Shown here: positions 3,476 to 38,049 of the stretch, piece after piece
How positions within the stretch are numbered: position 1 is the stretch's first letter
How the letters are laid out: each line of letters opens with the position of its first letter
Sequence record: DRR378314_1077
DNA length: 40,551 bases
Reading direction: 5' to 3' (one strand)
Notes under the pieces: model-generated
Told to the model about the DNA's origin: nothing
What the model saw: the letters and a program-made list of their open reading frames with translations, nothing else
Databases searched by the model: none
Translations under genes and position numbers: made by a program

Positions 3476-4024
3476 GTGCAAAAAGGTGAAGAACTAAATC
3501 AATACATACATGGCCTGAGAAAATACGCATTCGCCCTTACCAGAAGCTGGTCAGAGGCCGATGATCTGGTTCAGGAAGCCCTGCGGCGGGTTTTGGAGCA
3601 CATTCGCAGAAATCACTCAATTGATAATTTGAAATCATATCTGTTCAAGGCACTCCGAAATGTGCGCATCGATCAATTGAAAATGACGCAGACACGAGGT
3701 GTTGAGGTTTCTATGGAGGACGCTGTGGGAATGCTCTCAACGTCAGCGCAGCAGGACACCCGGTTGCAGTGTCGCGATCTGGAGAGAGGTATGCTGACGT
3801 TATCGGAAGATCAGCGCCAAGCAATCTTCCTGATATGTATGGAGGGGCTTTCCTACGAAGAAGTGGCGGACATCGCCGAGGTTCCCGTTGGGACTGTTCG
3901 TTCAAGATTACATCGTGGCAGAGAAGTGCTGCGAGATTATATGAATTCTGGCCCTGATGGATCGCAGGTTATTGCGCCGGCATCAGAGTCCACCCAGGGG
4001 TTTAGCGAGGTAGGCAATGAGTGA
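3476..4024 (+). CDS. ECF RNA polymerase sigma factor (sigma-70 group 4; PrtI/ECF26-like)
   Basis: Region 2 'LRKYAFALTRSWSEADDLVQEAL' and region 4 'EGLSYEEVA...VPVGTVRSRLHRGR'; GTG start after AGGGG. Confidence 0.92.
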   Translation: MQKGEELNQYIHGLRKYAFALTRSWSEADDLVQEALRRVLEHIRRNHSIDNLKSYLFKALRNVRIDQLKMTQTRGVEVSMEDAVGMLSTSAQQDTRLQCRDLERGMLTLSEDQRQAIFLICMEGLSYEEVADIAEVPVGTVRSRLHRGREVLRDYMNSGPDGSQVIAPASESTQGFSEVGNE

Positions 4025-4949: not shown

Positions 4950-4991
4950 AAAATGATCACCATAAATATCAATGTCCGAAAGGATTGAAAT

Positions 4992-19198: not shown

Positions 19199-20026
19199 AT
19201 GGTTAAATTATTTCACAAAATCAGTGTTTTTTACTTCATATGTTCATTGGTGCAGTTGGGCTTGAGCGCCGGGTTTTCAGGAAGTGCGCGCGCCGATACG
19301 GGGTTAGACCCGGCAGAGCTTGAACGCACCTGGCAGGGCGCAAAAATATTCCTGCCCCAGGGCGGTCCAATGCCGCAAACCCGCTTAAGCGGACGGGAAC
19401 TCACCCGTGATACAGATCTTTCTCACTATTCTGTTGTGGTATATGCCCACGGGTGCGCCGGGTTAGGAGAGGCTGCGCTGGATACTGGATTATTTTTAAG
19501 CCGCGCAGGTTTTGTCGTCATTGCACCGGATAGTTTTGCCCGCCGGACTAAACCACGCAGCTGTGAACTTTCAATTCCAAGAGGGGGGCTACACCGCGCT
19601 GTTCTTGGCTGGCGACATGCGGAAATAGATTACGCGATTAAGCGCCTCCAATCTTTTGATGATCATGCTCCTTCAAATATTTTCTTGATGGGTTTGAGCG
19701 AAGGCGGAATTACAACAGCAACCTATGAAGGGGCGGCGCTATCTGGCCGTGTCATAGAGGGGTGGACATGCCATGCTGGATGGCCGGAATATGTTGGGCT
19801 CAACAGTCCATCTACAGAACCCGTCCTGTCATTGGTTGCAGATCAAGACCCTTGGTTTGCCTTGCCCGTTTTACAGGGGGATTGCGGTGCGTATATGACC
19901 AATCATCAAAACGCGACCTCCGTTGTTTTTAGGAAAGGATCTCCTTTACGGACAAGCCATTGGCTGTCATTCGACAGATCGGTCAAAGCAATGATCTTAG
20001 AGTTTCTTGAGACCAATGAACGGTAA
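19199..20026 (+). CDS. Exported alpha/beta-hydrolase (dienelactone hydrolase-like)
   Basis: Signal peptide (..SARA), HGCAG oxyanion motif, GLSEGG nucleophile elbow, DPWF and a C-terminal His. Start moved to the ATG at 19199 to avoid a long overlap. Confidence 0.8.
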   Translation: MVKLFHKISVFYFICSLVQLGLSAGFSGSARADTGLDPAELERTWQGAKIFLPQGGPMPQTRLSGRELTRDTDLSHYSVVVYAHGCAGLGEAALDTGLFLSRAGFVVIAPDSFARRTKPRSCELSIPRGGLHRAVLGWRHAEIDYAIKRLQSFDDHAPSNIFLMGLSEGGITTATYEGAALSGRVIEGWTCHAGWPEYVGLNSPSTEPVLSLVADQDPWFALPVLQGDCGAYMTNHQNATSVVFRKGSPLRTSHWLSFDRSVKAMILEFLETNER

Positions 20027-20180
20027 ACTCATGAAATGCAAACATAGCTATTGCTCAAGAAGTGGCAGAAAACGCTCTTTGTTATGACCTATAGTGATTA
20101 AAAACAGGGCTGCTTAGGATTGTTAGCGAAGCGATCCAGCATTTTTTTAGTTTCCAACGCGGCATCACTAGGGTACAGCT

Positions 20181-20630
20181 TCACGACCGTTTCAGTTTTT
20201 GAAGCGTATTTTCCAGAACATTCAGGAAATTGCTGCGGTCTTTTTTTGAAAAAGCGGCATTGTAGCCAGTAATCTCGCCTGTATCGCGCAAATGTGTGTT
20301 GAGGTCCCGCATAGCTAGTTTCATACCGATGGAGCCGTCTGTGAAGGCTTTGCCAGTGGGTCCCAATACAATGCTGCCAGCTTTCAGACAGCGATCTGCC
20401 AAAGGGATGTCCGCAGTGATGACCACGTCTTTTGGTCCACAATTGTCGGCGATCCAGTTATCAGCAGCATCGAAGCCAGTATCGACAACAATTTGCTCGA
20501 TCAGGGGGCTTTGGGGTAATCGCATCCAGCTATTGCTGACAACGTAACTTAAGAGCTTATGTCGCCCCGCAACACGATAGATTTCGTCCTTCACTGGACA
20601 GGCGTCTGCATCAATAAAAATCCGTGTCAT
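20181..20630 (-). CDS. yaiI: YaiI/YqxD family protein (UPF0178)
   Basis: Motifs IFIDADACPVKDE, DAADNWI and DVVITADIPLA. Confidence 0.92.
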   Translation of the reverse strand: MTRIFIDADACPVKDEIYRVAGRHKLLSYVVSNSWMRLPQSPLIEQIVVDTGFDAADNWIADNCGPKDVVITADIPLADRCLKAGSIVLGPTGKAFTDGSIGMKLAMRDLNTHLRDTGEITGYNAAFSKKDRSNFLNVLENTLQKLKRS

Positions 20631-20891
20631 CTGTTCCCTTGGTTGAGCTTAGCGATCATTTTATTCTTCTATCGTCTAATCAGGATGGGCAATTCGGTTG
20701 CGGGAAAAGCCAGATTCTTGGGTGCCGCGCGATCTCAGAGGTGCTTTATGCGCAAAAGTATTAAACTTAAAATCATGAGAATTATCAACAAGAACTGTTA
20801 TTAAACCTTTTGCGGTAGCAACTCCGATACAAGTTTTATTGAACCCGCAAGATTTCTGTGAGCCAGTTGTCTTTTTTGTCAAAGCGATCAT

Positions 20892-22043
20892 TTAGCCTTG
20901 GCTTTCGATCAGCAGATCATGTTCCAACAGCTTTTTTAGTATGTCTCTATGATTGGTAAAAATATCTGCAGCAAAGGCACTTTCCTGTGCCATGGCATCG
21001 ACGAGAAACAAATCATCAAATTCCAGTTCAAAGGAATAGTCACCAACAGAGATGTTATAGGTGCGGGCGGCTTGTAAAGGGGCAAACATAATTTTCACGG
21101 ATGGGGGTTTGATCAAAAGGGTCTTCCTGGAGATGATGCCTTCGACATTGCCCTGCCCCTCATCAGTTTCAGGATCATAACCATCGTTGTGGGAAGGGCG
21201 GCTGAAATATTGAGTGAGCCACTTGCAATACAGATCTTGATCAAAAACAGTTGTCATAAATGACTTCAAGTCCTCAACATGATCTGGTGTAACCTGAAAA
21301 GGCGCCGCAGTTTCGGTGAGGTTCGGGCCCAAATAACGGGGAAGCTGAGGGTCATGTTCTTCGATATAATGTGCAAAATCGATTAACATCTCAGACAGCG
21401 AAGGTCCCAGGAAACCGACGGAGTAGGTGAGAGATGGTTGTAAGCTCACTCCTTGATGTGCGAATTTTGGGGGGATGTAAATGACATCTCCCTCTTTGAC
21501 GGTGATTTCCTCACCGTCAAATGATGTTTTCAAAATTTCCAGGGGAATGTCTTCAATATAATCTTCATGTTCAATAGCAGCCCGCGCAATCTTCCAGCGT
21601 CTTTCGCCTTTCCCTTGAACGAGAAACACATGGTAGCTGTCTGTATGTGCCCCGACTGTGCCGCCAGTTGGCGAAAAGCTAACCATAATGTCGTCAAGTA
21701 GCCAGCGGGGACAAAAATTGAAATACTTGAGAAGTTCTGCCGTTTTGTCGTCAAACTGGTCAATGTTTTGAACAAGCAGGCTCCAATCTTTCTCCCCCAG
21801 TTCGTTGAATATGCTTTCTTCCATGGGGCCGTAGTCGCATGTCCAGTCGGTTTGGTCTTGTCCTTTTCGAACGAGCCGTGATTTAACCTCTTCTTCCATG
21901 GAAAGGCCGGCAAGATGATTTTCATCAATTAATCCGTCTGTGACTGTCTTTGGGATCATGCCGCGGATAACAAAAGGTTTTTTGTTCCAGAAATCCTGGA
22001 AAAATTCCTCAGCTGTTGGAAGCGTATCGAGAATTAAAGACAT
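20892..22043 (-). CDS. roxA: JmjC/cupin 2-oxoglutarate oxygenase, RoxA/YcfD-like (ribosomal protein uL16 Arg hydroxylase family)
   Basis: Motifs FWNKKP..IR, LAGLSMEEEVKSRLV, WSLLVQ, PRWLLDDIMVS, GAHTDSY (HxD), QGKGERRW, YIPPKFAHQG (distal His) and YSVGF. Start probably 22043 or 22061 rather than 22187. Confidence 0.85.
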   Translation of the reverse strand: MSLILDTLPTAEEFFQDFWNKKPFVIRGMIPKTVTDGLIDENHLAGLSMEEEVKSRLVRKGQDQTDWTCDYGPMEESIFNELGEKDWSLLVQNIDQFDDKTAELLKYFNFCPRWLLDDIMVSFSPTGGTVGAHTDSYHVFLVQGKGERRWKIARAAIEHEDYIEDIPLEILKTSFDGEEITVKEGDVIYIPPKFAHQGVSLQPSLTYSVGFLGPSLSEMLIDFAHYIEEHDPQLPRYLGPNLTETAAPFQVTPDHVEDLKSFMTTVFDQDLYCKWLTQYFSRPSHNDGYDPETDEGQGNVEGIISRKTLLIKPPSVKIMFAPLQAARTYNISVGDYSFELEFDDLFLVDAMAQESAFAADIFTNHRDILKKLLEHDLLIESQG

Positions 22044-22325
22044 GAGCTTAAGTCTATTCATAGGTAAAAGAAGATAGGTAAATGCTTCACCTTGCAGAGT
22101 AAAGTAAAGAAGATATTGGCACGAATCACAACCGCGATTTGCAGGGAGATGACCGCACGCGGAACTTCCCGATAAAATCGATTTCATGAATTTGCTTGAT
22201 CAGGGCACAGTTAAGGGGGGTGACCGTTCATAAATCACACATTCAATATGGTATGATTTGACAAATTGCCTGATGTAAATGAAGACCTCTAACTTGATGA
22301 CACGTTTTGTGGGAAGAACAGCCAA

Positions 22326-24497
22326 ATGGAAATCACGGTTAATTTTCTGGACAATCTTCGGCTTGAAGCCAAGTTTGATGATTTTACGATAACGACCGAT
22401 CAGCCTATTCGCTATAAAGGGGACGGAACAGCACCAAGTCCTTTTGATTACTTTCTTGCCTCCTCCGCACTATGTGCCGCTTATTTTATAAAGGTCTATT
22501 GTCTGTCGCGGAACATCCCCACCGATGATATTCGGGTGTCCCAGAATAATATTATCGATCCGGAAAACAGGTATAATCAAACCTTTCAAATTCAGGTCGA
22601 ATTGCCGTCCAGTATTTCAGAACGTGATCGGATCGGTATCTTAAGGTCAGCCGATCGCTGCACGGTAAAAAAGGTAATTCAGCAATCGCCTAACTTTAAA
22701 ATTGAATCTGTTGAGGATTTGGATGATGCCTCGTTGTTGGACAGCTTCGAAGGCGATGGTAACACGTTGATTATGGGCAAAGATCTGCCGTTGGAACAAA
22801 CAATCGCCAATATGACCTCCATCCTCGCGGACATTGGCGTGAAAATCGAAGTCGCATCATGGCGCAATATTATACCAAATGTTTGGTCACTTCATATCCG
22901 TGAAGCGGCATCGCCAATGTGTTTTACCAACGGCAAAGGCGCGACAAGAGAAAGTGCACTTTGCTCTGCCTTGGGTGAATATATTGAACGCATGAACTGC
23001 AATTTCTTCTACAATGATTATTATTTTGGGGAAGAAATCGCCAACAGTGACTTTGTACATTACCCGAACGAAAAATGGTTTAAACCGGGCGCAGATGACG
23101 CCTTGCCTTCAGGGTTGATGGATGAACGGTGTCTACAGCTTTACAATCCCGATGGTGATTTAAAAGCATCTCACCTGATTGATACAAATTCTGGCCGTAT
23201 AGATCGTGGGATTTGTGCGTTGCCTTTCACGCGGTGTTCAGATCAGGAAACGATTTATTTTCCTTCGAACCTTTTGGAAAACCTTTTCGTTAGCAATGGT
23301 ATGAGTGCGGGAAATAATCTGTATGAAGCAAAGGTTCAGTGCTTATCCGAAATTTTTGAGCGGGCAATCAAACGGCAAATAATTGAGCAGGAGATTGTCC
23401 TGCCGGATGTGCCAAAGGAGGTTCTCGCCAAATATCCTGGGGTTTTGGCGGGCATAGAAGAACTTGAAAACAAAGGCTTTCCCGTTTTGGTCAAGGACGC
23501 TTCCTTGGGAGGAAAATTCCCGGTAATGAGCGTGACTTTGATGAACCCAAAGACAGGAGGCGTTTTTGCATCTTTCGGTTCACATCCCAGTTTTGAGGTC
23601 GCTCTGGAGCGCTCTCTCACCGAATTATTGCAGGGCCGTAGTTTCGAAGGCTTAAACGACGTTCCGCCTCCGACTTTTAACAGTCAGGCGGTTAGCGAGC
23701 CAAATAATTTTGTCGAGCATTTCATTGACTCAACGGGGCTTGTGTCTTGGAAGTTCTTTAGCCAAAAACAGGATTATGAGTTTTGTGAGTGGGACTTTAG
23801 CGGCACGACAGAGCAGGAGAATGAACGGTTAATGAATATCCTTAGAGACCTAGGCAAGGAGGCCTATGTTGCAACCTATGAGGAATTCGGTGCAGCGGCA
23901 TGCAGAATTTTGGTGCCGGGTTATTCAGAAATTTATCTTCCAGAAGATTTGATCTGGGATAACACCAATAAAGCGTTGATGTTCCGCGAAGATATTTTAA
24001 ACATCCATTCACTGTCAGATGAGGAATTGGAAGACCTGCTTGAACGTTTCGACGACATGCAACTGGATCATTACACGCTAATTTCGGATCTCATCGGGAT
24101 CGTGTTCGATGAAAACACAGTCTGGGGGAAACTGGATGTCGGTGAGCTGAAGATATTGACCTATCTCGCTTTGGGCCAGTTTGAGGAAGCGAAAGAGATC
24201 ATTATTGATTTCTTGAATTTCAACGACAATACGGTAGAGCGGATTTTGTTCTATCGGGCATTAAGTGCAGTCGTTGATATTGCAGTTGATGAAGCATTGG
24301 ACCTGGAAGATTACATTCCCAATTTGACCAGAATGTATGGGGCCGACCACATGCAGAGTGCTGTCGGATCTGTGACCGGTGCCGTTAAATTTGCCGGTTT
24401 AACAAAGACAAGCATGAAGCTGGAAGGCCTAGACAAGCACCTTAGATTGATTGAAAGTTATAAAAAACTCCACACAGCAAGGCAGATGAAGAGATAG
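22326..24497 (+). CDS. ycaO: OsmC-domain/YcaO-domain fusion protein
   Basis: N-terminal ~130 aa OsmC-like (TDQP, PSPFDYFLASSALCA, RCTVKK), followed by E. coli-type YcaO (GKDLPLE, FTNGKG, SALGEYIER, SNGMSAGN, CLSEIFER, ALERSLTELLQGR, HFIDS). Confidence 0.92.
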   Translation: MEITVNFLDNLRLEAKFDDFTITTDQPIRYKGDGTAPSPFDYFLASSALCAAYFIKVYCLSRNIPTDDIRVSQNNIIDPENRYNQTFQIQVELPSSISERDRIGILRSADRCTVKKVIQQSPNFKIESVEDLDDASLLDSFEGDGNTLIMGKDLPLEQTIANMTSILADIGVKIEVASWRNIIPNVWSLHIREAASPMCFTNGKGATRESALCSALGEYIERMNCNFFYNDYYFGEEIANSDFVHYPNEKWFKPGADDALPSGLMDERCLQLYNPDGDLKASHLIDTNSGRIDRGICALPFTRCSDQETIYFPSNLLENLFVSNGMSAGNNLYEAKVQCLSEIFERAIKRQIIEQEIVLPDVPKEVLAKYPGVLAGIEELENKGFPVLVKDASLGGKFPVMSVTLMNPKTGGVFASFGSHPSFEVALERSLTELLQGRSFEGLNDVPPPTFNSQAVSEPNNFVEHFIDSTGLVSWKFFSQKQDYEFCEWDFSGTTEQENERLMNILRDLGKEAYVATYEEFGAAACRILVPGYSEIYLPEDLIWDNTNKALMFREDILNIHSLSDEELEDLLERFDDMQLDHYTLISDLIGIVFDENTVWGKLDVGELKILTYLALGQFEEAKEIIIDFLNFNDNTVERILFYRALSAVVDIAVDEALDLEDYIPNLTRMYGADHMQSAVGSVTGAVKFAGLTKTSMKLEGLDKHLRLIESYKKLHTARQMKR

Positions 24498-24519
24498 GAT
24501 TTGCGAAACACCTATCTCT
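24490..24519. terminator. Hairpin between convergent ycaO and DUF4197 genes
   Basis: AGAGATAGG (24490-24498) pairs with CCTATCTCT (24511-24519); overlaps the ycaO stop and has no clear U-tract. Confidence 0.4.
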
Positions 24520-24536
24520 CCTCCATAAGGGGTGTC

Positions 24537-25295
24537 TTAGGCTCCGCCAAAAACTGATTTTAGGATGTCTGTCGTGCGGGCGACCGGGTTGTTTCGGATT
24601 GAGGCTTCTTCTGTGGCAAGGTAGTGAAACAATCCTTCAAGGGCGAGATCTGTAGCATGTTCCGTCAAATCGGATTGAATATCAGGAACCAACGGGATTT
24701 TCTTATATTCACTGACTAAATTATTGTAAGCAGTTATTGCGCCAACGTCTTGTAGGGACTGATTAATAACCGGGCGAACCGTGTCCATCAAATCATCGGT
24801 TGCAACTCTCCGGAAATATTGTGTCGCGGCGTCATCTGGTCCCTTATAGATTTTTTGGGCATCCTCTAAAGTCATTTCCGAGATAGCCTTCAGGATCAAT
24901 TCCTTGGCTTTAGGGGCCGCAGCTTCAGCTCCTTGGTTGAGTTTACTTTCAACATCATCGGCCATGGACGACAGTCCAAATTTCCGAAGATAGGATTGGG
25001 CCCTCTGCATGGTTTCAGGCAACGGAATATGAATAGAAGGATCGTTCTCATATCCACCATCTGTTCCAATTTGATTAACAACCCGGTCCGTTCCAACTTT
25101 AAGTGCTTCTTTTAATCCTTGGATAATCTGGGGAGTTCCAAGCTCACTGCTGGAGTTGGTCGTTGTGCTTTCGGTAGGAGATATGGATTTGGTGACTCTA
25201 TCTTTTAGGTTATTCAGCAAATCAGCGTTTGCGGTTACTGGACCCATCGACAGAGCAAGCGTAACAGCAAGCGATTTGATCAGAAGGCGGTGCAT
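24537..25295 (-). CDS. DUF4197 domain exported protein
   Basis: Signal peptide (..TANA); motifs GLKEALKVG, IHIPLP, LNQGAEAA, DAATQYF, GLFHYLATEE.SIRNNP and RTTDILKSVFG. Confidence 0.88.
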   Translation of the reverse strand: MHRLLIKSLAVTLALSMGPVTANADLLNNLKDRVTKSISPTESTTTNSSSELGTPQIIQGLKEALKVGTDRVVNQIGTDGGYENDPSIHIPLPETMQRAQSYLRKFGLSSMADDVESKLNQGAEAAAPKAKELILKAISEMTLEDAQKIYKGPDDAATQYFRRVATDDLMDTVRPVINQSLQDVGAITAYNNLVSEYKKIPLVPDIQSDLTEHATDLALEGLFHYLATEEASIRNNPVARTTDILKSVFGGA

Positions 25296-25440
25296 AGTGG
25301 TATCCTATAGTTTGATATTCAGCATCTTTAAAATTTCAAAAGAATGTGTTCAAAAATCGGCCTTGTTAAATTCAGGTGGATGGATTCCGTTTTGGTTTAG
25401 TTTCCATGTTCTGAAATAGGGGTGCAATCAATCTTCATAA

Positions 25441-25478
25441 AAACAAGAAGACGGACCCATAGGCCCGTCTTTTTGTTT
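25441..25478 (-). terminator. Rho-independent terminator downstream of katG
   Basis: AAACAAGAAGACGG...CCGTCTTTTTGTTT inverted repeat with A/T tails, about 30 nt past the katG stop. Confidence 0.7.
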
Positions 25479-25506
25479 AAGCGAAATCTGTCGTCTCGGT
25501 TTACGA

Positions 25507-27720
<2,214 letters not shown>

Positions 27721-28318: not shown

Positions 28319-29524
28319 ATGATGGATCGTCCGGAATTTTATCGTTTTCATCAGGGGGACAAGACACTTCCCTTTGCCCCAGCGGAATATGAAGCCCGAT
28401 TAAAAGGGCTGCGCCGCGAAATGGACCGTACAGGTGTGGATGCATGCGTTTTCACCTCCATGCAGAATATCGCGTATTATTCGGGGTTTTTATATTGCAC
28501 TTTTGGGCGGCCATACGGACTTGTTGTCACAGCGTCACAGAGCGTTACTATCAGCGCTGGGATTGACTGCGCGCAGCCCTGGAGGCGGTGTTATGGCGAT
28601 AACATCACCTACACAGATTGGCAGCGGAATAATTATTGGCGCGCGATCTGCTCTGTGACCGGTGAGAATAAAGTTATCGGATTTGAAGGGGATCACCTAA
28701 CTCTTCAACAAAAAAATTTATTGGACAGCTTTTTAAGTCCGGCTAAGGCTATCGATATGGCGACGATGACCATGCGCCAGCGAATGTATAAATCAAGTGC
28801 TGAAATTAAATTGATCAGACAAGGGGCTGCTGTTGCTGATGCTGGCGGGTATGCGATCAGGGATGCAATTAAGCCGGAGGCTAGAGAGATAGATGTAGCG
28901 ATGGCTGGGCGGAATGCAATGGAGCTGGAAATCGCACGCCGCTTTCCGGATGCTGAATACCGAGATACATGGGTTTGGTTTCAATCCGGAATTAATACGG
29001 ATGGTGCCCATAATCCGGTTACTGCCCGGCAATTGGAACGGGGAGACATTCTCAGCTTAAATACCTTTCCCATGATTTCCGGTTATTATACAGCGCTTGA
29101 ACGTACCTTATTCGTTCAAGAGGTTGACCCTGCCAGTTTAAAGATTTGGGAAACCAACGTCGCCGCTCATGAATATGGTATCAGCCTGCTGAAACCAGGG
29201 GTTTCCTGCGCTGAAGTGACAGAGAAGATCAACTGTTTCTTCGCGGAGCGGGATCTCTTGCAATATCGAACATTCGGGTATGGCCATTCTTTTGGTGTCC
29301 TGTCTCATTACTACGGCCGCGAAGCGGGTCTGGAGCTGCGCGAGGATGTAGATACGGTTTTAGAGCCGGGAATGGTGATTTCCATGGAACCGATGTTGAC
29401 CATTCCTGATGGGCAGCCTGGCGGGGGTGGTTACCGGGAACATGACATTCTTGTCATCATCGAAGACGGCAACGAGAATATAACTGGCTATCCTTATGGT
29501 CCTGAATTTAATTTGGTGGGTTAG
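28319..29524 (+). CDS. Creatinase (creatine amidinohydrolase), M24/pita-bread fold
   Basis: Motifs YYSGFLYC.FGRPYG, QPWRR, YTDWQR, WFQSGINTDGAHNP, FPMI.GYYTALERT and YGHSFGVLSHYYGREAGLELRED; AGAAGGA RBS. Confidence 0.9.
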   Translation: MMDRPEFYRFHQGDKTLPFAPAEYEARLKGLRREMDRTGVDACVFTSMQNIAYYSGFLYCTFGRPYGLVVTASQSVTISAGIDCAQPWRRCYGDNITYTDWQRNNYWRAICSVTGENKVIGFEGDHLTLQQKNLLDSFLSPAKAIDMATMTMRQRMYKSSAEIKLIRQGAAVADAGGYAIRDAIKPEAREIDVAMAGRNAMELEIARRFPDAEYRDTWVWFQSGINTDGAHNPVTARQLERGDILSLNTFPMISGYYTALERTLFVQEVDPASLKIWETNVAAHEYGISLLKPGVSCAEVTEKINCFFAERDLLQYRTFGYGHSFGVLSHYYGREAGLELREDVDTVLEPGMVISMEPMLTIPDGQPGGGGYREHDILVIIEDGNENITGYPYGPEFNLVG

Positions 29525-29552
29525 AAAAAAGCAGGGAAATGCTCCCCTTTTT
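29525..29552. terminator. Probable bidirectional terminator
   Basis: AAAAAAG-CA-GGGA-AATGC-TCCC-CTTTTT between the convergent creatinase and LysR genes. Confidence 0.4.
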
Positions 29553-29564
29553 GCAGTTCCAGAG

Positions 29565-30446
29565 TTATGTGCCAGTTATGGTTAGCCAATCAGCAAAAAT
29601 TCGGGCTTTTTCTGACGCTTTTTGATGAATGTTTAAGTAAAAGCCCATGGGGGCCGGGATGCTATCGGGGACCAGTTGAATCAACTGTTCTTCCTGGATC
29701 AGTTTTCTGACTAGCCGGTCCCACCCCAAAATGGCCCCCACGTCATCTTGTGCGGCTTGCAGGGCAATCATGTAGTTGTTGAGGAAAAAGCCACGTCCTC
29801 TGGGCCCGTCGTAATTCAGTTCAAGAAGCCAGTCATTCCAGGTTGTCCAGCCTGTCTCATCATTCTGGACATGAATTAAGGGGACTTTCTGGAGGTCTTT
29901 AACAGTGTGGATGTCATGGTCTTGAGCAAATTGCCGGGTGCCCAAAGCAATGATATTACCTTGGAAGAGCCTCCGCTCATCACTTCCATCGTCCATTGGG
30001 TTGCTATACTGAACGCTTAGATCGCACCGGGTTGTCATTTCCGAAACATCGCTGACGATTTGCGAAATAGTGATATCTGGATGTGTTTTCCAAAATTGTG
30101 AAATCTTTGGAGTGAGCCAGAATGAACTCACAGCCGTTGTTGTTCGAATGGTGACATCAACTGTTTCTGGCTGATCCCGGAGCAGGATCACCGTGTCAGA
30201 GATTGTCTCAAACCCTCTTTGCAACGCAAAAAGGAGGAAGGCGCCTTTTTCGGTAAGCTCGACGCCGCGGTTGCTTCGCAGGAAAAGGTTGCATCCTAGA
30301 TCGATCTCAAGTGCTTTAATCCTGTGGCTGATAGCGGCAGGCGTGACGTTCATCTCCTGCGCTGCATTTTTAAAGCTAAGATTTCTGGCAGCCGCCTCGA
30401 AACAGACCAATGCATTTATGGATGCGAGATCGTAGGGTCGCTTCAT
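29565..30446 (-). CDS. LysR-family transcriptional regulator (GcvA-like)
   Basis: NALVCFEAAARNLSFKNAAQEMNVTPAAISHRIKALE HTH and GcvA-type substrate domain; divergent from the Rieske operon. Confidence 0.95.
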   Translation of the reverse strand: MKRPYDLASINALVCFEAAARNLSFKNAAQEMNVTPAAISHRIKALEIDLGCNLFLRSNRGVELTEKGAFLLFALQRGFETISDTVILLRDQPETVDVTIRTTTAVSSFWLTPKISQFWKTHPDITISQIVSDVSEMTTRCDLSVQYSNPMDDGSDERRLFQGNIIALGTRQFAQDHDIHTVKDLQKVPLIHVQNDETGWTTWNDWLLELNYDGPRGRGFFLNNYMIALQAAQDDVGAILGWDRLVRKLIQEEQLIQLVPDSIPAPMGFYLNIHQKASEKARIFADWLTITGT

Positions 30447-30501
30447 TTTTGATGTCGCCTATAATTTGCCCAGAAAGAGATAATTTCTTGGGCGTTTAGA
30501 G

Positions 30502-30516
30502 GTTAGCTCAGCTAAT
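30502..30516. promoter_or_regulatory. LysR recognition box (T-N11-A palindrome)
   Basis: gTTAGC-TCA-GCTAAt between the LysR and Rieske genes, including the CTAAT core seen in GcvA sites; -35-like TTGTCA at 30538-30543. Confidence 0.65.
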
Positions 30517-30603
30517 CCAGGTTGAAAATAAATACTATTGTCAAATTATGCATAGGCGTCAAAACTTTCTGTAACTGAAATCTAAAATAGATGGAACTTG
30601 GCC

Positions 30604-31845
30604 ATGACGGTTGTTTCTCATTCTATCCTTGAAATGTTGGCTCGCCGAAGATCTGGGTTTTCCTTCGAACGGGACTTTTATAACTCTCAGTTCGTTTACG
30701 ATCTGGATTTGGAACATATTTTTTACAAGCAATGGCTTTTTGCCATACCTGCCTGTGAGCTTTCTAAAGCGGGTGAATATGTCCTGCATCAGGTTGGCGC
30801 ATTTTCAGTAATCCTGGTCCGAGGAGATGACGGAAAAATTAGAGCCTTCCATAACACCTGTCGGCATCGGGGGTCGGTGTTATGTAAATCCAGGAAAGGC
30901 CGAAACCCTAAACTTGTCTGCCCCTATCATCAATGGACCTATGATTTAGAAGGGGCACTTGTTTGGGCGCGGGATATGGGTGAGAGTTTTGAGCCTGGTG
31001 ACTATGGGTTAAAGTCGGTCCACTGTCGCAATATTCACGGTCTAATTTATCTTTGTCTGGCTGAGGAGGCTCCTGACATCGAGCCCTTTGCTGCAGCGGC
31101 CTCACACTATCTGGCGCCGCATGATCTGGAAAACTCCAAGGTCGCATATGAAAGTTCAATTATCGAAAATGGGAATTGGAAACTTGTCTGGGAGAATAAT
31201 CGAGAATGTTACCATTGCGGAGGTAATCATCCATCTCTTTGCCGAACCTTTCCCGAAGATGCGCGTTTGATCGGCAATATTGGCGACGGGTCCATGGCTC
31301 CACTATTGGAGCAGCATGTGCAGCGATGTGAAGCCGTGGGCGCGCCCTCAACTTTGACAACAGGCGAGGAGGGAGATTGGCGATTTGTACGTCCACCGCT
31401 TTTAGGCGCAGGTGAGAGTTATACGCTGGACACAAAAGCTGCTGTTGCAATTCCGAATTCCTCCATTCCTTTTAAAGATGCAGGCTCGCTTCTCTATTTT
31501 AATTTACCGACAACATGGAACCATTTTCTGGCAGATCATTCCCTTGTTTTCCGGGTGTCACCGATCAGTCCGACGGAAACCGAAGTCTGTACTAAATGGC
31601 TGGTCCATAAAGATGCCGAGGAGGGGCGGGACTATGACCTGAACCGCCTTACCGAAGTGTGGCTGACAACCAACGCTGAAGATAAAGAGGTGGTTGAGAA
31701 TAATCAGAAGGGGATTCAATCACCTGCTTATGAAGTTGGTCCTTATTCTGAAATTCAGGAGGGTGGTGTTATTCAGTTCACAGATTGGTATGTTAAATCT
31801 TTGAGTGAAGCACTTAGCCTCTCAACCCTGGTTGCGGCGGAGTAG
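30604..31845 (+). CDS. Rieske non-heme iron N-demethylating oxygenase, alpha subunit (Stc2/HpbB/GbcA family; probably proline betaine demethylase)
   Basis: Rieske CRHRG...CPYHQW; mononuclear Fe ligands NWKLVWENNRECYHC..NH and ED; KWLVHKDAEEG.DYDL. ATG at 30604 (TTG at 30598 possible). Confidence 0.9.
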   Translation: MTVVSHSILEMLARRRSGFSFERDFYNSQFVYDLDLEHIFYKQWLFAIPACELSKAGEYVLHQVGAFSVILVRGDDGKIRAFHNTCRHRGSVLCKSRKGRNPKLVCPYHQWTYDLEGALVWARDMGESFEPGDYGLKSVHCRNIHGLIYLCLAEEAPDIEPFAAAASHYLAPHDLENSKVAYESSIIENGNWKLVWENNRECYHCGGNHPSLCRTFPEDARLIGNIGDGSMAPLLEQHVQRCEAVGAPSTLTTGEEGDWRFVRPPLLGAGESYTLDTKAAVAIPNSSIPFKDAGSLLYFNLPTTWNHFLADHSLVFRVSPISPTETEVCTKWLVHKDAEEGRDYDLNRLTEVWLTTNAEDKEVVENNQKGIQSPAYEVGPYSEIQEGGVIQFTDWYVKSLSEALSLSTLVAAE

Positions 31846-31848
31846 GTT

Positions 31849-32916
31849 ATGTCGGGGCTCGAAAAACCAACGCTCGCCTTTTGGCGGGATATAGAATTTC
31901 TGGAATGCGTTTCATTCCTGCCAGAAGCACCGAATGTCATGACATTCTCTTTTCAGCCAATGTCGGGTGCTTTGTTTAGTTATGATCCGGGCCAGTTCCT
32001 GACGCTGGAACTACCCGTGGCAGATGGCCCCCTTTATCGGACCTTTACCATTTCGTCGTCGCCAACGCGGCCGACGTCGTTATCCATTACCGTGAAAGCT
32101 CAAGCTGATTCCATTGGAACCCGCTGGATGCTAGACAATTTACGGCCCGGAATGCAGTTAAAAGTCAGAGGCCCAGCCGGTGATTTTTCCCTCGTTCATA
32201 ATCCCTCTGATCGATATTTGTTTGTTTCTGCGGGATCTGGTGTGACACCGATGATGTCCATGACAACATATCTTTATGATGCGGGTCGTGACCCTGACAT
32301 TGTTTTCGTAAATTGTGCTCGCCGTCCCTCAGATATTATTTTTAAGGAAGCGCTGGAGCATATGGCTACGCGCATCACTGGAATTGATTTGAAATGGGTG
32401 GTGGAGGAAGCTGACCCTTTCAAACCTTGGACTGGTTATCTCGGAACCTTCAATCAGTTAATGCTGGGTTTGATGGCCCAGGACTATTTGGAGCGGGAAG
32501 TTTTCTGCTGTGGACCGGAGCCGTTCATGCAGACTGTCCGAGAGGTTCTCATCGGTTTGGGTTTTGATATGGATCACTATCATCAGGAGAGTTTCCATCC
32601 GCCGGCGCCAGACCATCAGCAACTTGCAGATGATGTGGTGCCTGATGAGAAAACCAATGCAGTCGTTGATTTTTTGTCTTCCGGCATTGTTGCCAACTGT
32701 GCCCAAACGGATACCATTCTTGCTGCGGCCCGGAATGCAGGGTTGGTGATCCCATATGGTTGCTCCATGGGAATTTGTGGCACTTGTAAGGTTCGTAAAT
32801 TGGAGGGCCAGGTTCACATGGTGCATAACGGTGGAATTACGGATGAGGATATTGAAGAGGGGTATATTTTATCCTGTTGTTCCAATCCGATCGGACATGT
32901 CAAGATCGAGGCATGA
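31849..32916 (+). CDS. FAD/NAD-binding reductase with C-terminal 2Fe-2S domain (GbcB/Stc3-4-like partner of the Rieske oxygenase)
   Basis: Motifs PGQFLT, RTFTISS, AGSGVTP, CCGPEPFM, ESF and C..GICGTC...C ferredoxin. Confidence 0.92.
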   Translation: MSGLEKPTLAFWRDIEFLECVSFLPEAPNVMTFSFQPMSGALFSYDPGQFLTLELPVADGPLYRTFTISSSPTRPTSLSITVKAQADSIGTRWMLDNLRPGMQLKVRGPAGDFSLVHNPSDRYLFVSAGSGVTPMMSMTTYLYDAGRDPDIVFVNCARRPSDIIFKEALEHMATRITGIDLKWVVEEADPFKPWTGYLGTFNQLMLGLMAQDYLEREVFCCGPEPFMQTVREVLIGLGFDMDHYHQESFHPPAPDHQQLADDVVPDEKTNAVVDFLSSGIVANCAQTDTILAAARNAGLVIPYGCSMGICGTCKVRKLEGQVHMVHNGGITDEDIEEGYILSCCSNPIGHVKIEA

Positions 32917-32970
32917 TCGAACCTTTAGGAGTTGCAGTTCCAATAACGAAGCCTGAAACAGAGGTTACAT

Positions 32971-35007
32971 ATGTCTTCTGATCCAATTCTCCAGCCCTAT
33001 CAGCTAAAGCATTTAACATTGCGAAACCGCATTATCATGACATCTCATGAACCGGCCTATCCTGAAGACGGTCTGCCAAAAGAAAGGTACAGAGCCTATC
33101 ATGTGGAGCGGGCAAAAGGGGGCGTTGCAATGACCATGACGGCTGGATCGGCCGCAGTTTCCAAGGATAGTCCCCCGGTTTTCAACAATCTGCTGGTGTA
33201 CAAGGATGAAGTCGTCCCATGGATGAAAGATCTGACTGATGCCATCCATGAGCAGGGGGCGGCAGTTATGATCCAACTCACCCATTTGGGGCGGCGAACG
33301 CGATGGGATAAAGAATATTGGCTTCCTGTTGTCTCTGCATCCCATGAGCGAGAGGCTGCGCATCGCGCATTCCCAAAGAAGGCAGAAGACTGGGATGTGG
33401 AGAGAATAATCAAGGATTATGCAGATGCTGCTGAACGGATGAAGGCCGGGGGCATGGATGGAATTGAATTGCAGGCCTATGGACATTTGCTTGATCAATT
33501 CTGGTCACCGCTCACCAACGATTTGGAGGGGCCTTATGGCGGATCTTTGGAAAACCGATTGAAGCTGACATTTAAAGTGTTGACTGAAATCCGCAAACGA
33601 GTGGGCCCGGATTTTATTGTTGGTATTCGATATACTGGCGATGAAGACTTGGCGGGAGGATTGAGTAAAGAGGATGGCCTTTCCATTTCAAAGCGGTTGA
33701 AAGACAGTGGCCAAATTGATTTTTTGAATGTAATTCGGGGACATATCGATACGGATGCTGGTTTGACGGATGTGATCCCAATTCAAGGCATGGCAAATTC
33801 ACCCCATCTGGATTTTGCGGGGGAAATTCGGGCGGCAACTGATTTCCCCACATTTCATGCCGCTAAGATTCCAGATGTTGCTACGGCTCGCCATGCTATC
33901 GCCTCTGGCAAGGTGGATATGGTTGGAATGACCCGGGCACATATGACAGATCCACATATTGTTCGTAAAATAATCGAGAAAAGAGAAGAGGATATTCGAC
34001 CATGTGTGGGGGCTAATTATTGCCTGGATCGGATTTATCAGGGCGGGGCAGCTCATTGTATTCACAATCCGGCAACGGGGCGTGAGACCGCCATCCCTCA
34101 TATTATGGAGAAGGCTGCGAAGCGTAAAAAAGTTGTCGTTATTGGTGCCGGTCCTGGTGGGCTTGAAGCTGCTCGCGTCGCGGGAGAACGGGGCCATGAT
34201 GTTGTGGTTCATGAAGCGGCAAGTGATCCCGGGGGTCAGGTCCGTTTGACGGCGCAAAGCACTCGACGCAAGGAAATGATCAGTATAATTGATTGGCGTG
34301 CTAATCAGTGCCTGTCATATGGTGTTCAATTTCACTTCAACAGTTGGGCCGAAATGGACACAGTGCGTGCGGAAAACCCTGATGTGGTCATTGTTGCAAC
34401 CGGGGGATTACCGCATACAGAGGTTCTATCTTATGGAAATGATCTGGTTGTTTCTTCCTGGGACATTATTTCTGGAGATGTGAAGCCGGGTAACACTGTC
34501 CTGATTTATGATGATGCGGGCGATCATGCTGCATTGCAAGCCGCCGAAATTGTCGCGCAAGCGGGTGCAAAGACTGAAATCATGACGCCGGATCGGTCAT
34601 TTGCGCCGGAAGTGATGGCAATGAACCTGGTGCCTTATATGCGAAGCCTTCAGAAACTCGATACGACATTTACTGTGACCTACCGGCTTATGGCCGTTGA
34701 AAAGCAGGGGAACCAGTTGATTGCTAAAGTTGGCAGTGATTATGGTGGCGTTTATCAGGAACGGAACGTTGATCAAATCGTTGTCAATCATGGCACCCTT
34801 CCTCTTGATGAGCTGTATTTTGATCTTCGCGGCGGTTCCACCAATCTGGGGGAGGTGGATTATGAGGCGTTCATCAACGGCAAGCCGCAAACGGTTGTTC
34901 GTAACGAAAAAGGATCTTATCAGTTGTTTCGAATTGGGGATGCTGTTGCAGCCCGGAACACACATGCGGCAATCTATGATGCGGTGCGGCTAATGATGGT
35001 TGTCTAG
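32971..35007 (+). CDS. stcD: NADH:flavin oxidoreductase, N-methylproline demethylase StcD/HpbA-like
   Basis: 678 aa; DP.LQPYQLKHLTLRNRI..T.HEPAYPEDG.PKERYRAY, TAGSAAVSKDSPPVFNN, CVGANYC...C Fe-S motif, VIGAGPGG and RIGDAVAARN. Closely resembles rhizobial StcD as recalled. Confidence 0.88.
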   Translation: MSSDPILQPYQLKHLTLRNRIIMTSHEPAYPEDGLPKERYRAYHVERAKGGVAMTMTAGSAAVSKDSPPVFNNLLVYKDEVVPWMKDLTDAIHEQGAAVMIQLTHLGRRTRWDKEYWLPVVSASHEREAAHRAFPKKAEDWDVERIIKDYADAAERMKAGGMDGIELQAYGHLLDQFWSPLTNDLEGPYGGSLENRLKLTFKVLTEIRKRVGPDFIVGIRYTGDEDLAGGLSKEDGLSISKRLKDSGQIDFLNVIRGHIDTDAGLTDVIPIQGMANSPHLDFAGEIRAATDFPTFHAAKIPDVATARHAIASGKVDMVGMTRAHMTDPHIVRKIIEKREEDIRPCVGANYCLDRIYQGGAAHCIHNPATGRETAIPHIMEKAAKRKKVVVIGAGPGGLEAARVAGERGHDVVVHEAASDPGGQVRLTAQSTRRKEMISIIDWRANQCLSYGVQFHFNSWAEMDTVRAENPDVVIVATGGLPHTEVLSYGNDLVVSSWDIISGDVKPGNTVLIYDDAGDHAALQAAEIVAQAGAKTEIMTPDRSFAPEVMAMNLVPYMRSLQKLDTTFTVTYRLMAVEKQGNQLIAKVGSDYGGVYQERNVDQIVVNHGTLPLDELYFDLRGGSTNLGEVDYEAFINGKPQTVVRNEKGSYQLFRIGDAVAARNTHAAIYDAVRLMMVV

Positions 35008-35031
35008 GATGATTGAAGTGGATTAAAGCCG

Positions 35032-35775
35032 CTAGATTTGAAACAACTGGCCTGGCCCAGCATGTTCAGTTGGTAGATTTGCTAGCTTCAGCATGTGCCA
35101 CAGAAGGACTTGGTTGCTTGTCATAATCGGTTTGTTGATTTGTTGTTCTGCTTTTTCGATGATGCCAAAACTATTGATGTTGGTGCAGGATACAAAAATG
35201 CCATCGACATTTTGCTGTGCGCCCATCTTAAGCAGAGCGTCATAGACTGATTGAGTGCTAATTCGGGCTACGAGGGCTTCTTCAACCTGTTCAAAAGAAC
35301 CGAAAGCTGTAATTTCAATCCCATTTTGTTCCAGTAAGCCTCTCATCGCGGCTGAGACTTCAGCAACATAAGGAGTGACAAAGCCAATTCGTTTGAGTTT
35401 CAGAGCCTCAATTGCGTTAAGGACTGCTGTAATCGGGTCTGTGACTTTTACGGATGGGTGGTGCTGTTGAATCAGGTTCCGAACCGTTTCTTGTCCTATA
35501 TAAGTTGCCCCTGATGTGCAGGCATACCCGATAACGTCAAAATTTGCGGTTTTAGGTAAAAGTGAGGCGGCTGTGGGCAGGTCCTCTTTCATCTGCATTA
35601 ATGTTTCCGGTGTTAGATCCTCGCCACTTGGAATTCGGCTATGGTAGAGGCGGATTTCAGAGTCTTTTAAGACAGATCGCACTTCGGTTTCGAGCGTTTC
35701 ATCGGCTTGCAAAACAATAAGTCCGAGGGCGGCTTTTCGTGCCTTTGGATCTTCAAGATCGTATTTAAGTTTCAT
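35032..35775 (-). CDS. Asp/Glu racemase-maleate isomerase family protein (EutA-like)
   Basis: Motifs LGLIVLQADETLE, YACTSG, VTPY, FVSCTN and TSNQ..WH; two catalytic-type Cys. Confidence 0.88.
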   Translation of the reverse strand: MKLKYDLEDPKARKAALGLIVLQADETLETEVRSVLKDSEIRLYHSRIPSGEDLTPETLMQMKEDLPTAASLLPKTANFDVIGYACTSGATYIGQETVRNLIQQHHPSVKVTDPITAVLNAIEALKLKRIGFVTPYVAEVSAAMRGLLEQNGIEITAFGSFEQVEEALVARISTQSVYDALLKMGAQQNVDGIFVSCTNINSFGIIEKAEQQINKPIMTSNQVLLWHMLKLANLPTEHAGPGQLFQI

Positions 35776-35816
35776 TGTCCTTCCCCTCTGGTATCGCTTT
35801 TTACTGGGCCTGGCTT

Positions 35817-36974
35817 TTAGTTCATAAGAACCGGCAATTCTTCCGGCGCTGGCCGGGAAAGATATCTGGGGGCGCCATCCTGAATAAGTATATTTTCTTC
35901 ATGAACCATTATCCTCCCGCCTCCGAGAGAAAGGCTCGGCTCCAAGGTGATCACCATGTTTTCTTCCAGAACGGTCTCATCAAATTCAATTAGGGAAGGG
36001 GCTTCGGTCAGTTGCAGCCCAAGCCCGTGACCATAACGCCCCACATCTCCTGTTTCCTGATTAATGACTTTCTGCATGGTCGCGTGCAGATCTTTGCATC
36101 GGGTTCCAGGGCGGGCGCTTTCAAATGCGGCCTTGGTGGCGGTGATTAAAGTTTGATATGCGGATTTTGCGTGGTCACTTGCTCGTCCAAAAGCATAGTT
36201 TCGATCAAAATCACAGTAATATCCCTTGAACGTAGCACCTGTATCCAACATGAGGATGTCACCCTCCTGTAGGGGAGTGTCATCGGGCGGAGAAATTACA
36301 TCCGCATACCCATCCTGACCTGCACCACCCACTAAATAAGGAACGTTATCTGCGCCCTGGGCTAGGAGATCCGTTCGGAATGCGCGAAAGACATTATCCA
36401 AGCTCATACCCGTATGAAACATAGAGGCGGCGTTTTCAAAGCTGCTAGAAGCAACCGCACAGATATGTGCAATGATATCTATTTCTGCTTCTGATTTGAC
36501 CATCCTCAAATGCTGAATTTCAGCCGTAAAATCAACAAATGAGACACTTGGCAATTTTTGCTGAAGTGTCAAGAAGCTCTGGAGTGGCATTCGCAAGATA
36601 CTCTCCCTCCCCATGAGCATTCCAACTTTCTGAAAGGGTTCAAGGATTTCCGTTAGCAAGGAAATACCATCATCGGATGCGTGCGGCGAAGACCAGCTTC
36701 GGACATCATCAAGCCAGGTTTTACGCATCAATGCGCCGCCAATTTCCGGAATAATGGCGATCGGTTTTCGATCCCGTGGGATGACAAGAAACCACGGACG
36801 GGTCGGGCTTTGCCAAAATAGTGTCCGAAAACCTGTAAAATAATGCATCTCCGCTTCACTTGTGAAAAAAAGTGCGTCAAGGCCAGCAGCGTGCATCTTG
36901 GCGTGGGCCTTTTGAAGGCGGTTTTCAAACTCAGAAATTGGAAAGTCTCCGGAGAAATCTGGTTCAGCCGTCAT
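35817..36974 (-). CDS. M24 (Xaa-Pro peptidase/EutD-like) family hydrolase
   Basis: EFENRL, YFTGF, RMVKSEAEI; metal ligands LDTG, CDFDR, GHGLG, LEP and HEEN. Confidence 0.9.
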   Translation of the reverse strand: MTAEPDFSGDFPISEFENRLQKAHAKMHAAGLDALFFTSEAEMHYFTGFRTLFWQSPTRPWFLVIPRDRKPIAIIPEIGGALMRKTWLDDVRSWSSPHASDDGISLLTEILEPFQKVGMLMGRESILRMPLQSFLTLQQKLPSVSFVDFTAEIQHLRMVKSEAEIDIIAHICAVASSSFENAASMFHTGMSLDNVFRAFRTDLLAQGADNVPYLVGGAGQDGYADVISPPDDTPLQEGDILMLDTGATFKGYYCDFDRNYAFGRASDHAKSAYQTLITATKAAFESARPGTRCKDLHATMQKVINQETGDVGRYGHGLGLQLTEAPSLIEFDETVLEENMVITLEPSLSLGGGRIMVHEENILIQDGAPRYLSRPAPEELPVLMN

Positions 36975-38049
36975 CCGTTGCCTCCTCGGACATGAAGGTC
37001 AGAACCGTTGATGAACTGGACAGACTATCCAGCGACCCTGCTTCGCACAGCGCTTTAAGACCCGCAATACCTGCAATCCCGGAGGGGGTTGAAGCTAAAC
37101 CCTGATTGCTAAGCCATTGGCAAGTGTCCTCAGCCATTTGATCATCAATCGTCATGAAGTAATCGGCTTCTTCAGATAAATAGCGAAGTGCAAGATGTGA
37201 TGGCTCTTTGCAATCAAGACGGCCCATATTGGAGACGCTGCCCTTGGCTTCGACGGGCTTACCTGCCTCTATGCTGTCAATGAGGCAGGGAGCCCTGGAC
37301 GGTTCAACGACAATAATCTCTGGCGTGTCCTGCCAGAGATATCGGCACATGGCGGCTGCGGCACTGGCCAGTCCGCCAACGCCAGCTTGCAGAAAAACAT
37401 GGCTTGGGGGCCTAGTTAGCTGAGATTCCAGTTCAGCTCCCATAATCAGGTAGCCTTCCATGACATCTTTTGCCGGTTCGGAGTAGCCCGGCCAACTGCT
37501 GTCTGACAGGAGCTGCCAATTATTGGTAATGGCGGCTTTACGGGCAGCGGACATGCTGGCTTCATAATCAGCCCCTTCGCGCACGACCACAGCATCTTTT
37601 GCTCTCAGTTTTTGCGCGAAACTCTCTGGAACGGTTTCGGCAAGATAAACAACTGCCGTGGCGCCAAAAATACGGGCACCAGCAGCCATGGAAAGTCCGT
37701 GGTTCCCCGCGCTCGCACAGACAAATGTTGTTCCGTTGAGGCTGGTCTCTGTGGAGCAGGCCGGGGAAGTTTCCATTGCGGTCGCTGCTTGTTTTGCAAT
37801 CGCAAAAGCGGCTCCAAGTGCCTTGAAGCTGCCAAGTCCCATCCGACCGCGCTCATCCTTGATATAGAGTTGGGATATGTTGAGCTTGTCAGCGACCTGC
37901 TTTTCTGCCCGCAAGGGGGTGATATTTGCCGCAGGGCACTTGGACATCAAGGCCTGGGCTGGCTTCGGATTGGTGATGATAGTGCCAGGCTCAAATCCAT
38001 CTTGGCTTGGCAAACCCTCTCCCCTATAGGGGTTTGCAATGAGTCGCAT
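36964..38049 (-). CDS. PLP-dependent fold-type II lyase (diaminopropionate ammonia-lyase-like)
   Basis: KDERGRMGLGSFKALG (PLP Lys), SAGNHG, LSDSSW.GY, VMEGY, LQAGVGGLA and MGRLDCKEPS; stop overlaps the M24 gene start. Confidence 0.88.
   Translation of the reverse strand: MRLIANPYRGEGLPSQDGFEPGTIITNPKPAQALMSKCPAANITPLRAEKQVADKLNISQLYIKDERGRMGLGSFKALGAAFAIAKQAATAMETSPACSTETSLNGTTFVCASAGNHGLSMAAGARIFGATAVVYLAETVPESFAQKLRAKDAVVVREGADYEASMSAARKAAITNNWQLLSDSSWPGYSEPAKDVMEGYLIMGAELESQLTRPPSHVFLQAGVGGLASAAAAMCRYLWQDTPEIIVVEPSRAPCLIDSIEAGKPVEAKGSVSNMGRLDCKEPSHLALRYLSEEADYFMTIDDQMAEDTCQWLSNQGLASTPSGIAGIAGLKALCEAGSLDSLSSSSTVLTFMSEEATDDG

Follow-up and report, generated by a model that had tools for sequence, protein, structure and literature searches.

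Why should the genes for two enzymes predicted to modify adjacent residues of one ribosomal protein, uL16, stand head to head in a marine bacterium? The question is raised by a 40,551-nucleotide stretch of DNA from sequence record DRR378314_1077 (the window hereafter), in which a gene for a RoxA-like oxygenase (roxA-like; 20892-22043, minus strand) and a gene for a fused OsmC-YcaO protein (OsmC-ycaO; 22326-24497, plus strand) are divergently transcribed, 282 bp apart. The original prediction had described such a pair across about 280 bp, and the open reading frames (ORFs) lie where it placed them, at 20892..22187 (minus strand) and 22326..24497 (plus strand); Pfam matches and a roxA start at codon M49, which sets the spacer at 282 bp, agree with that description. 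We consider it likely that the pair is a uL16 loop-modification unit kept by selection for both modifications. Taken as a whole, the window is best explained, with similarly good confidence, as the DNA of a Sneathiella-like marine alphaproteobacterium that carries a conserved two-gene divergent unit.

The proposed biochemistry has already been published, so it is the linkage that remains to be judged. A backbone thioamide at Met82 of uL16 was reported by Watson et al. 2020 (PMC7550191), who named YcaO as a candidate enzyme. According to Rice et al. 2026 (PMC13063428), Escherichia coli YcaO (EcYcaO) is required and sufficient for this modification, on the evidence of genetics and in vitro reconstitution; it binds folded uL16 with a dissociation constant (Kd) of 9.8 nM, and the YcaOs of Klebsiella pneumoniae and Pseudomonas aeruginosa likewise thioamidate uL16. 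The status of YcaO as merely the proposed Met82 enzyme, as the original prediction had it, has therefore been superseded by experiment for these three species. The same paper describes an epistasis between the two genes, in which double deletion restores the growth lost in poor medium on deletion of roxA, notes the co-occurrence of ycaO and roxA (its Figure S36), characterises YcaOs of the uL16 type by an acidic isoelectric point (pI) and the absence of TfuA nearby, and reports that the M82A variant of uL16 is still modified. It gives the sulfur donor of these YcaOs as unknown. The assignment of the thioamide to YcaO dates only from 2026. A full-text literature search for roxA together with ycaO found PMC13063428 alone, and neither “OsmC” nor “Alphaproteobacteria” occurs in its main text. 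Judged against that main text, the physical linkage is new, while the enzymology and the co-occurrence are published.

A conserved, divergent roxA/OsmC-ycaO pair is present in Sneathiella- and Emcibacter-like marine Alphaproteobacteria. A metagenome search with the single RoxA-like protein (P0001) returned no relative; a search with an alignment as the query returned 54 loci, which were screened by tblastn. Twenty of these encode a RoxA with at least 63% identity (type A), and a divergent OsmC-ycaO (80–93% identity) lies directly upstream of roxA in 14 of them. As five others (L150, L152, L159, L161 and L164) are short of upstream DNA, 14 of the 15 informative contigs are linked; the 14 include near-duplicates and correspond to about nine distinct lineages. 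One of them, L148, encodes a RoxA with 99.2% identity to a protein that bears the name Paremcibacter congregatus. None of the remaining 34 loci, with RoxA proteins 40–57% identical, has ycaO.

Genome collections gave the same picture. Among 401 evenly sampled alphaproteobacterial genomes, three matched the OsmC-YcaO family TIGR03549 (the search centre G001, together with G262 and G391), all with the fused form, and roxA is the divergent neighbour of OsmC-ycaO in G262 and G391. Within the Sneathiella-like order of G262 (39 genomes) both genes are found in eight genomes and neither in 31; in seven of the eight ycaO-bearing genomes they are divergent neighbours, and type A is the sole RoxA match of a P0001 search in the seven genomes with the linked pair. 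When 16 ycaO-holding loci were compared, the pair alone was common to them, being kept in 15 of the 16, and the flanks differed; no recurrent third gene, sulfurtransferase, ThiS or TfuA was found across these loci. RoxA and YcaO distances correlate over 12 linked pairs (Mantel r 0.80, reached by 0 of 5000 permutations). The proportions of linked order genomes (7/8) and contigs (14/15), the shuffled flanks and the co-divergence thus bear out the claim that the linkage is genomic-context evidence of a functional partnership. Adjacency confined to this one strain, the outcome that would have told against that claim, is not what the neighbourhood survey found.

The spacer (22044..22325) carries two conserved DNA blocks, defined from alignments of 12 short spacers and 13 roxA leaders, each adjoining one of the start codons. 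The roxA-side block, at 22054-22104, reads CTTTACTC-N16-TTTAYCTATC..TTTTAC..TGAATAG on the roxA strand and overlaps the 5′ extension of the roxA ORF; the ycaO-side block, at 22258-22318, reads TTGACAAA..GAT.TAAA..GTTTTC.GGAAAGAA. These blocks are candidate promoter or operator sites, and a shared spacer may give coordinated expression of roxA and ycaO. A scan of the spacer for the sigma-70 consensus found eight sites where 7.9 are expected, which is chance level, and a sigma-70 and terminator scan of 20000-25600 gave the same result as shuffled sequences. An RNA element in the roxA leader was considered and rejected, as 13 leaders yielded no consensus structure (three pairs, −0.81 kcal/mol), and the window has no match to an Rfam family. 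No sequencing runs with the locus, RNA included, were listed. Spacer length among linked loci is 137–320 bp in 13 cases and 942–1420 bp in eight. The long spacers contain an inserted gene on the roxA strand: in L153-L158 and L196 this is YaeQ (PF07152, E 2e-70; L153:4421-5134), which extends the spacer to 1.1–1.4 kb and leaves the pair intact, and in the Paremcibacter-like L148 it is a Cys-rich ORF of 191 amino acids.

The two genes appear to have different histories. In RoxA trees (60 rows with IQ-TREE in careful mode; 80 rows in a quick tree), a type A clade (support 96/92, or 99/100 with one outlier) comprises the window protein, the products of every linked gene, the L163 RoxA and the proteins with source names; it is separate from type B, to which Kiloniellaceae, G453 and numerous loci from metagenomes belong. 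A branch with support 100/100 divides types A and B from six RoxA proteins of Gammaproteobacteria, and P0001 shares 34–38% identity with the RoxA of gammaproteobacterial OsmC-YcaO carriers, which makes the linked roxA alphaproteobacterial by descent. In the YcaO tree, 26 alphaproteobacterial fused proteins lie on one side of a branch with support 100, and they share 69–74% identity with gammaproteobacterial fusions. The suggestion that both proteins look gammaproteobacterial in an otherwise alphaproteobacterial context is thus upheld for the context and in part for YcaO, which forms one alphaproteobacterial clade in a family centred on Gammaproteobacteria, but fails for RoxA. Joint transfer of the pair from Gammaproteobacteria is not supported, given the type of the linked RoxA and given Kiloniella, where YcaOs of this clade occur and roxA is not linked. 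The OsmC-YcaO proteins of G262 and Kiloniella majae share 84% identity, and their uL16 proteins 73%; this difference, together with the patchy occurrence of ycaO, points to horizontal movement of ycaO among these Alphaproteobacteria, with very strong constraint as the alternative. A FastTree result that nested Kiloniella ycaO within the linked group was dropped, as Kiloniella forms one clade in IQ-TREE (support 92.8); constraining the linked rows of the YcaO tree to one clade was not rejected (IQ-TREE, p-AU 0.46).

Outside this group the two genes keep company in genomes and not in loci. The K. majae family (46 genomes) has OsmC-YcaO, 80–84% identical, in 11 genomes; roxA is present in all 11 of these (RoxA 44–48% identical), against 4 of the 35 genomes without ycaO. 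E. coli-type YcaO was found in 33 of 401 evenly sampled gammaproteobacterial genomes (10 fused, 23 unfused), and the JmjC_2 domain in 121 of the 401, divided as 30 of the 33 with YcaO and 91 of the 368 without. The E. coli K-12 genes are not adjacent, as had been said: about 230 kb separates ycaO (954872-956632) from roxA (1187119-1188240), and ycaO has focA-pfl next to it.

Several of these facts count against a unit held together by selection. In Kiloniella, 0 of the 11 genomes with both genes have them adjacent, the two lying on separate contigs or, in G023, about 300 kb apart. Among gammaproteobacterial genomes with both genes, 0 of 30 have them adjacent, and six same-contig pairs are 29–800 kb apart. 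No RoxA match was found in the flanks of the 80 best OsmC-YcaO loci of the genome collection; 79 of these are non-Kiloniella and nearly all gammaproteobacterial, and the other is K. majae, whose contig ends 187 bp upstream of ycaO. No other setting with both genes shows the linkage, so the partnership does not require it. Inside the clade itself there are two exceptions: G453 has an unlinked ycaO (86% identical) with a type B roxA (43% identical), and L163 has a type A roxA whose 6 kb of upstream DNA contain no ycaO. No roxA remnant was found beside the G453 ycaO and no ycaO remnant beside the L163 roxA. The linked roxA genes form a single clade, so that the linkage amounts to one evolutionary event followed by retention. 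With E. coli YcaO as outgroup, the fused YcaO tree has an outgroup branch of length 8.3 and its root lands in a polytomy, so that no direction of transfer can be read from it; a gamma-to-alpha direction is inferred from distribution only (33/401 gammaproteobacterial against 3/401 alphaproteobacterial genomes). The uL16 gene, finally, lies outside the window, and its loop was read from four related genomes, three linked (G262, G391 and G470) and G453; all four have VRMGKGKG as in E. coli.

The alternative that fares best on these points is historical accident: a single landing in the ancestor of the clade, preserved for want of rearrangement within a spacer of some 200 bp, and meaning nothing beyond the co-occurrence seen at genome level. 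It accommodates the single origin, the lack of linkage in Kiloniella and Gammaproteobacteria although both genes are present, and the chance-level sigma-70 scan. It sits poorly with flanks that differ in nearly every locus around a pair kept in all but one of the ycaO-holding loci, with the survival of the pair through whole-gene insertions into the spacer, and with the all-or-none distribution in the order of G262. On balance we regard accident as improbable, though it deserves more weight than any other alternative.

The RoxA-like protein itself (383 amino acids from M49) belongs to the JmjC/cupin-4 family of Fe(II)/2-oxoglutarate oxygenases, with a JmjC_2 domain (PF08007, E 1.2e-28, profile positions 1-126 of 127). 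Its best solved relatives are the cupin-4 protein of Rhodothermus marinus (4csw/4cug, E 1e-54) and E. coli RoxA (EcRoxA; 4ccl/4lit/4nub, E ~1e-50). The Fe(II) triad of EcRoxA, H125/D127/H187, numbers that agree with the K-12 sequence, aligns with H181/D183/H244 of P0001 and is invariant across 31 relatives, which confirms the intact HxD...H motif noted earlier. An alignment of the 31 relatives opens with the consensus MSLILDTLPT, and 30 relatives share a start with M49 of P0001. Because relatives begin at this MSLILD consensus, the true roxA start is most likely M49, at base 22043; the 48 in-frame codons upstream (22044..22187, minus strand) are then probably untranslated, and the spacer measures 282 bp in place of the 138 bp given by the maximal ORF. 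Close relatives of P0001, at 64–73% identity, carry the source names Sneathiella sp., Emcibacter sp., Paremcibacter congregatus, Temperatibacter marinus and “Alphaproteobacteria bacterium”, names that belong to the NCBI orders Sneathiellales, Emcibacterales and Kordiimonadales. By orthology to characterised enzymes, we infer that P0001 hydroxylates the loop arginine of uL16.

A second alternative questions this step and supposes that type A RoxA changed its substrate or site, so that the pair acts on another target or on each other's product. A shift is conceivable because the type A stem is long (0.63 + 0.26 changes per site) and P0001 is only 32% identical to EcRoxA, which adds to the points on the opposing side; identity between type A and the type B RoxA found in other Alphaproteobacteria is moreover 40–50%, and phmmer alignments to the solved hydroxylases (4csw/4ccl/4lit) cover only residues 46-338, leaving the C-terminal 90 residues outside. 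We nevertheless find a changed substrate distinctly unlikely, given that the catalytic triad is intact and invariant, that the best matches in the Protein Data Bank are two validated uL16 arginine hydroxylases, that type A is the sole RoxA match of the P0001 search in the seven linked genomes, and that the uL16 loop is unchanged. As a separate observation, the uL16 of K. majae (L226) reads VRQGKGKG, with Gln at the Met82 position, though OsmC-YcaO is present. A structure prediction of the G262 YcaO domain with its own uL16, ATP and Mg scored 0.15 against a mark of 0.32.

The partner protein (P0002) matches TIGR03549, “OsmC domain/YcaO domain-containing protein”, with 1356 bits (cut-off 900) and NF040716 with 874 bits (cut-off 700), and has the Pfam architecture OsmC, YcaO and YcaO_C. 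The OsmC-like domain occupies residues 1-130 (22326..22715, plus strand; PF02566, 39.7 bits against a cut-off of 27.5), and the E. coli-type YcaO and YcaO_C domains, a predicted uL16 backbone thioamidase, occupy residues 147-723 (22764..24497, plus strand; PF02624, PF18381, TIGR03549). Residues 147-719 are collinear with residues 4-580 of E. coli YcaO (4q84; 583 bits, 47% identity). The computed pI is 4.57, that of EcYcaO 4.38, and 105 fused relatives with EcYcaO range over 4.32–4.93. Averaged over the 105 fused proteins, identity to P0002 is higher for the OsmC domain (0.82) than for the YcaO domain (0.74) and falls to 0.37 in the poorly conserved linker (residues 131-150); not one of the 105 departs from the OsmC cysteines C50, C59 and C112. 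From its orthology to characterised enzymes, P0002 is predicted to be an ATP-dependent enzyme that thioamidates the uL16 residue after the loop arginine. In the Stutzerimonas family, 58 of the 68 YcaO carriers among 121 genomes searched have the fused form, and the 10 unfused YcaOs are confined to genomes of 1.9–3.3 Mb. Because its large-genome relatives in this family carry the fused form only, the validated P. aeruginosa YcaO (PaYcaO, Q9I2H8) is probably an OsmC fusion as well. In five of the 11 Kiloniella assemblies ycaO lies 0.1–4.3 kb from a contig start (G001:C4:187, G019:C9:106, G025:C245:1367, G016:C10:3169 and G017:C13:4310), a hint that the DNA before ycaO may contain an element that is repeated or difficult to assemble.

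That OsmC-YcaO is instead a RimO/uS12 accessory factor or a redox enzyme with another target is hardly credible. In its favour, the NCBIfam entry NF040716 still bears the name “S12 methylthiotransferase accessory factor”, and no part in thioamidation is known for the OsmC domain, which also goes unmentioned in the main text of PMC13063428; against it, that paper assigns EcYcaO to uL16 by genetics, reconstitution and tight binding, P0002 is collinear with EcYcaO and acidic like the uL16 group, and a Pseudomonas YcaO has been validated in a lineage whose sampled large-genome relatives carry only the fused form.

Comparison with known systems places the pair closest to RoxA and YcaO of E. coli (PMC13063428, PMC7550191), with which it shares the enzyme families, the catalytic triad, the RMGKGKG loop, the YcaO/YcaO_C architecture, an acidic YcaO, genome co-occurrence and the absence of TfuA or a precursor of ribosomally synthesised and post-translationally modified peptides (RiPPs). 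It differs in the head-to-head arrangement, the N-terminal OsmC domain that EcYcaO lacks and the alphaproteobacterial host. The TIGR03549 fusions of marine Gammaproteobacteria and Pseudomonas resemble P0002 in their full-length equivalog match and three invariant OsmC cysteines, but their roxA lies elsewhere (0/80 best loci, 0/30 genomes) and the alphaproteobacterial proteins form a clade of their own. YcaO-TfuA of methanogens, which acts on a glycine of McrA, and the YcaOs of RiPP pathways share ATP-dependent activation of a backbone amide by the YcaO domain, and in the McrA system, as here, the substrate is a whole protein; unlike these systems, the window has no TfuA, ThiS, RiPP recognition element (RRE) partner or precursor peptide, and TIGR03266 scores 34 bits against a cut-off of 365. 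The statement that no tfuA or precursor gene lies nearby therefore stands: Pfam searches of 33 large ORFs from the window found no TfuA, RRE, cyclodehydratase partner, precursor peptide or other RiPP family.

The role of the OsmC domain invites a bolder suggestion. Like the OsmC/Ohr thiol peroxidases, it has the Pfam OsmC fold and two cysteines about 60 residues apart, a spacing known from that family, which may correspond to its catalytic pair; unlike them, it is fused to an amide-activating enzyme, has a third invariant cysteine and is far more conserved than usual. Protein Atlas matches to the OsmC part were OsmC/YcaO clusters only, all below 0.9, and a literature search for OsmC with YcaO gave five matches, all apparently incidental by title and abstract. 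The domain might conceivably supply the sulfur-handling or redox-gating part of uL16 thioamidation, as a persulfide relay or a peroxide-sensing switch, which would make the divergent pair a redox-coupled hydroxyl and thioamide module. We put this forward as a speculation with a low chance of being right; if true, an O2-dependent hydroxyl and a sulfur-dependent thioamide would be installed together on a loop of the peptidyl-transferase centre.

For the preferred reading, a uL16 loop-modification unit kept by selection, we propose the following scheme. The roxA product would hydroxylate the arginine of the V-R-M-G-K-G-K-G loop of uL16 (Arg81 in E. coli), and the OsmC-ycaO product would use ATP to thioamidate the backbone at the next residue (Met82). 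An OsmC-YcaO from a family centred on Gammaproteobacteria would have entered Alphaproteobacteria and, in one lineage, taken up a head-to-head position with a roxA of alphaproteobacterial type, after which the pair would have been retained, gained or lost jointly while its surroundings rearranged. Both modifications may be needed together because E. coli cells that have the thioamide but lack the adjacent hydroxyl seem to grow more slowly in poor medium. A clade with head-to-head genes would then be natural genomic evidence that the two uL16 modifications belong together, and the linked pair would extend the roxA/ycaO system of uL16 to Alphaproteobacteria. It would also offer cultured marine carriers, a short conserved control region for studies of regulation, and the OsmC cysteines as a target for work on sulfur delivery.

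The genes around the pair are less constant. A DUF4197 gene (24537..25295, minus strand; PF13852, E 2.7e-70) adjoins the pair in 4 of the 16 ycaO-holding loci (the window, L151, G391 and G468) and is recurrent without being constant. Downstream of roxA, a yaiI/DUF188 gene (20181..20630, minus strand; PF02639, E 2.3e-45) is an occasional neighbour, also found near roxA in G391, and the window and G473 share an Opp-type ATP-binding cassette (ABC) operon beside the pair. The catalase-peroxidase gene katG (25507..27654, minus strand; TIGR00198, 1222 bits) stands two genes past ycaO in the window, and in G462 (L238) katG is the immediate neighbour of roxA; its proximity may be chance or an oxidative-stress link. 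Further along, 28319-38049 encodes a LysR regulator, a Rieske ring-hydroxylating oxygenase alpha subunit, a ferredoxin reductase, an Old-Yellow-Enzyme-type flavoprotein, two M24 (creatinase/prolidase-like) peptidases, an arylmalonate-decarboxylase-like protein and a pyridoxal phosphate (PLP) enzyme, and looks like a catabolic cluster unrelated to the roxA/ycaO pair.

Unlinked roxA genes can have divergent neighbours of their own. In L177 a type B roxA (5926) is head to head with a gene for a 622-amino-acid ABC-F-type ATPase (4013-5881, minus strand) with two ABC_tran domains, ABC_tran_Xtn and ABC_tran_CTD, and similar tblastn patterns were seen in L171, L174, L189 and L198. The ABC-F class includes ribosome-binding translation factors, and this gene would be another ribosome-related neighbour of roxA.

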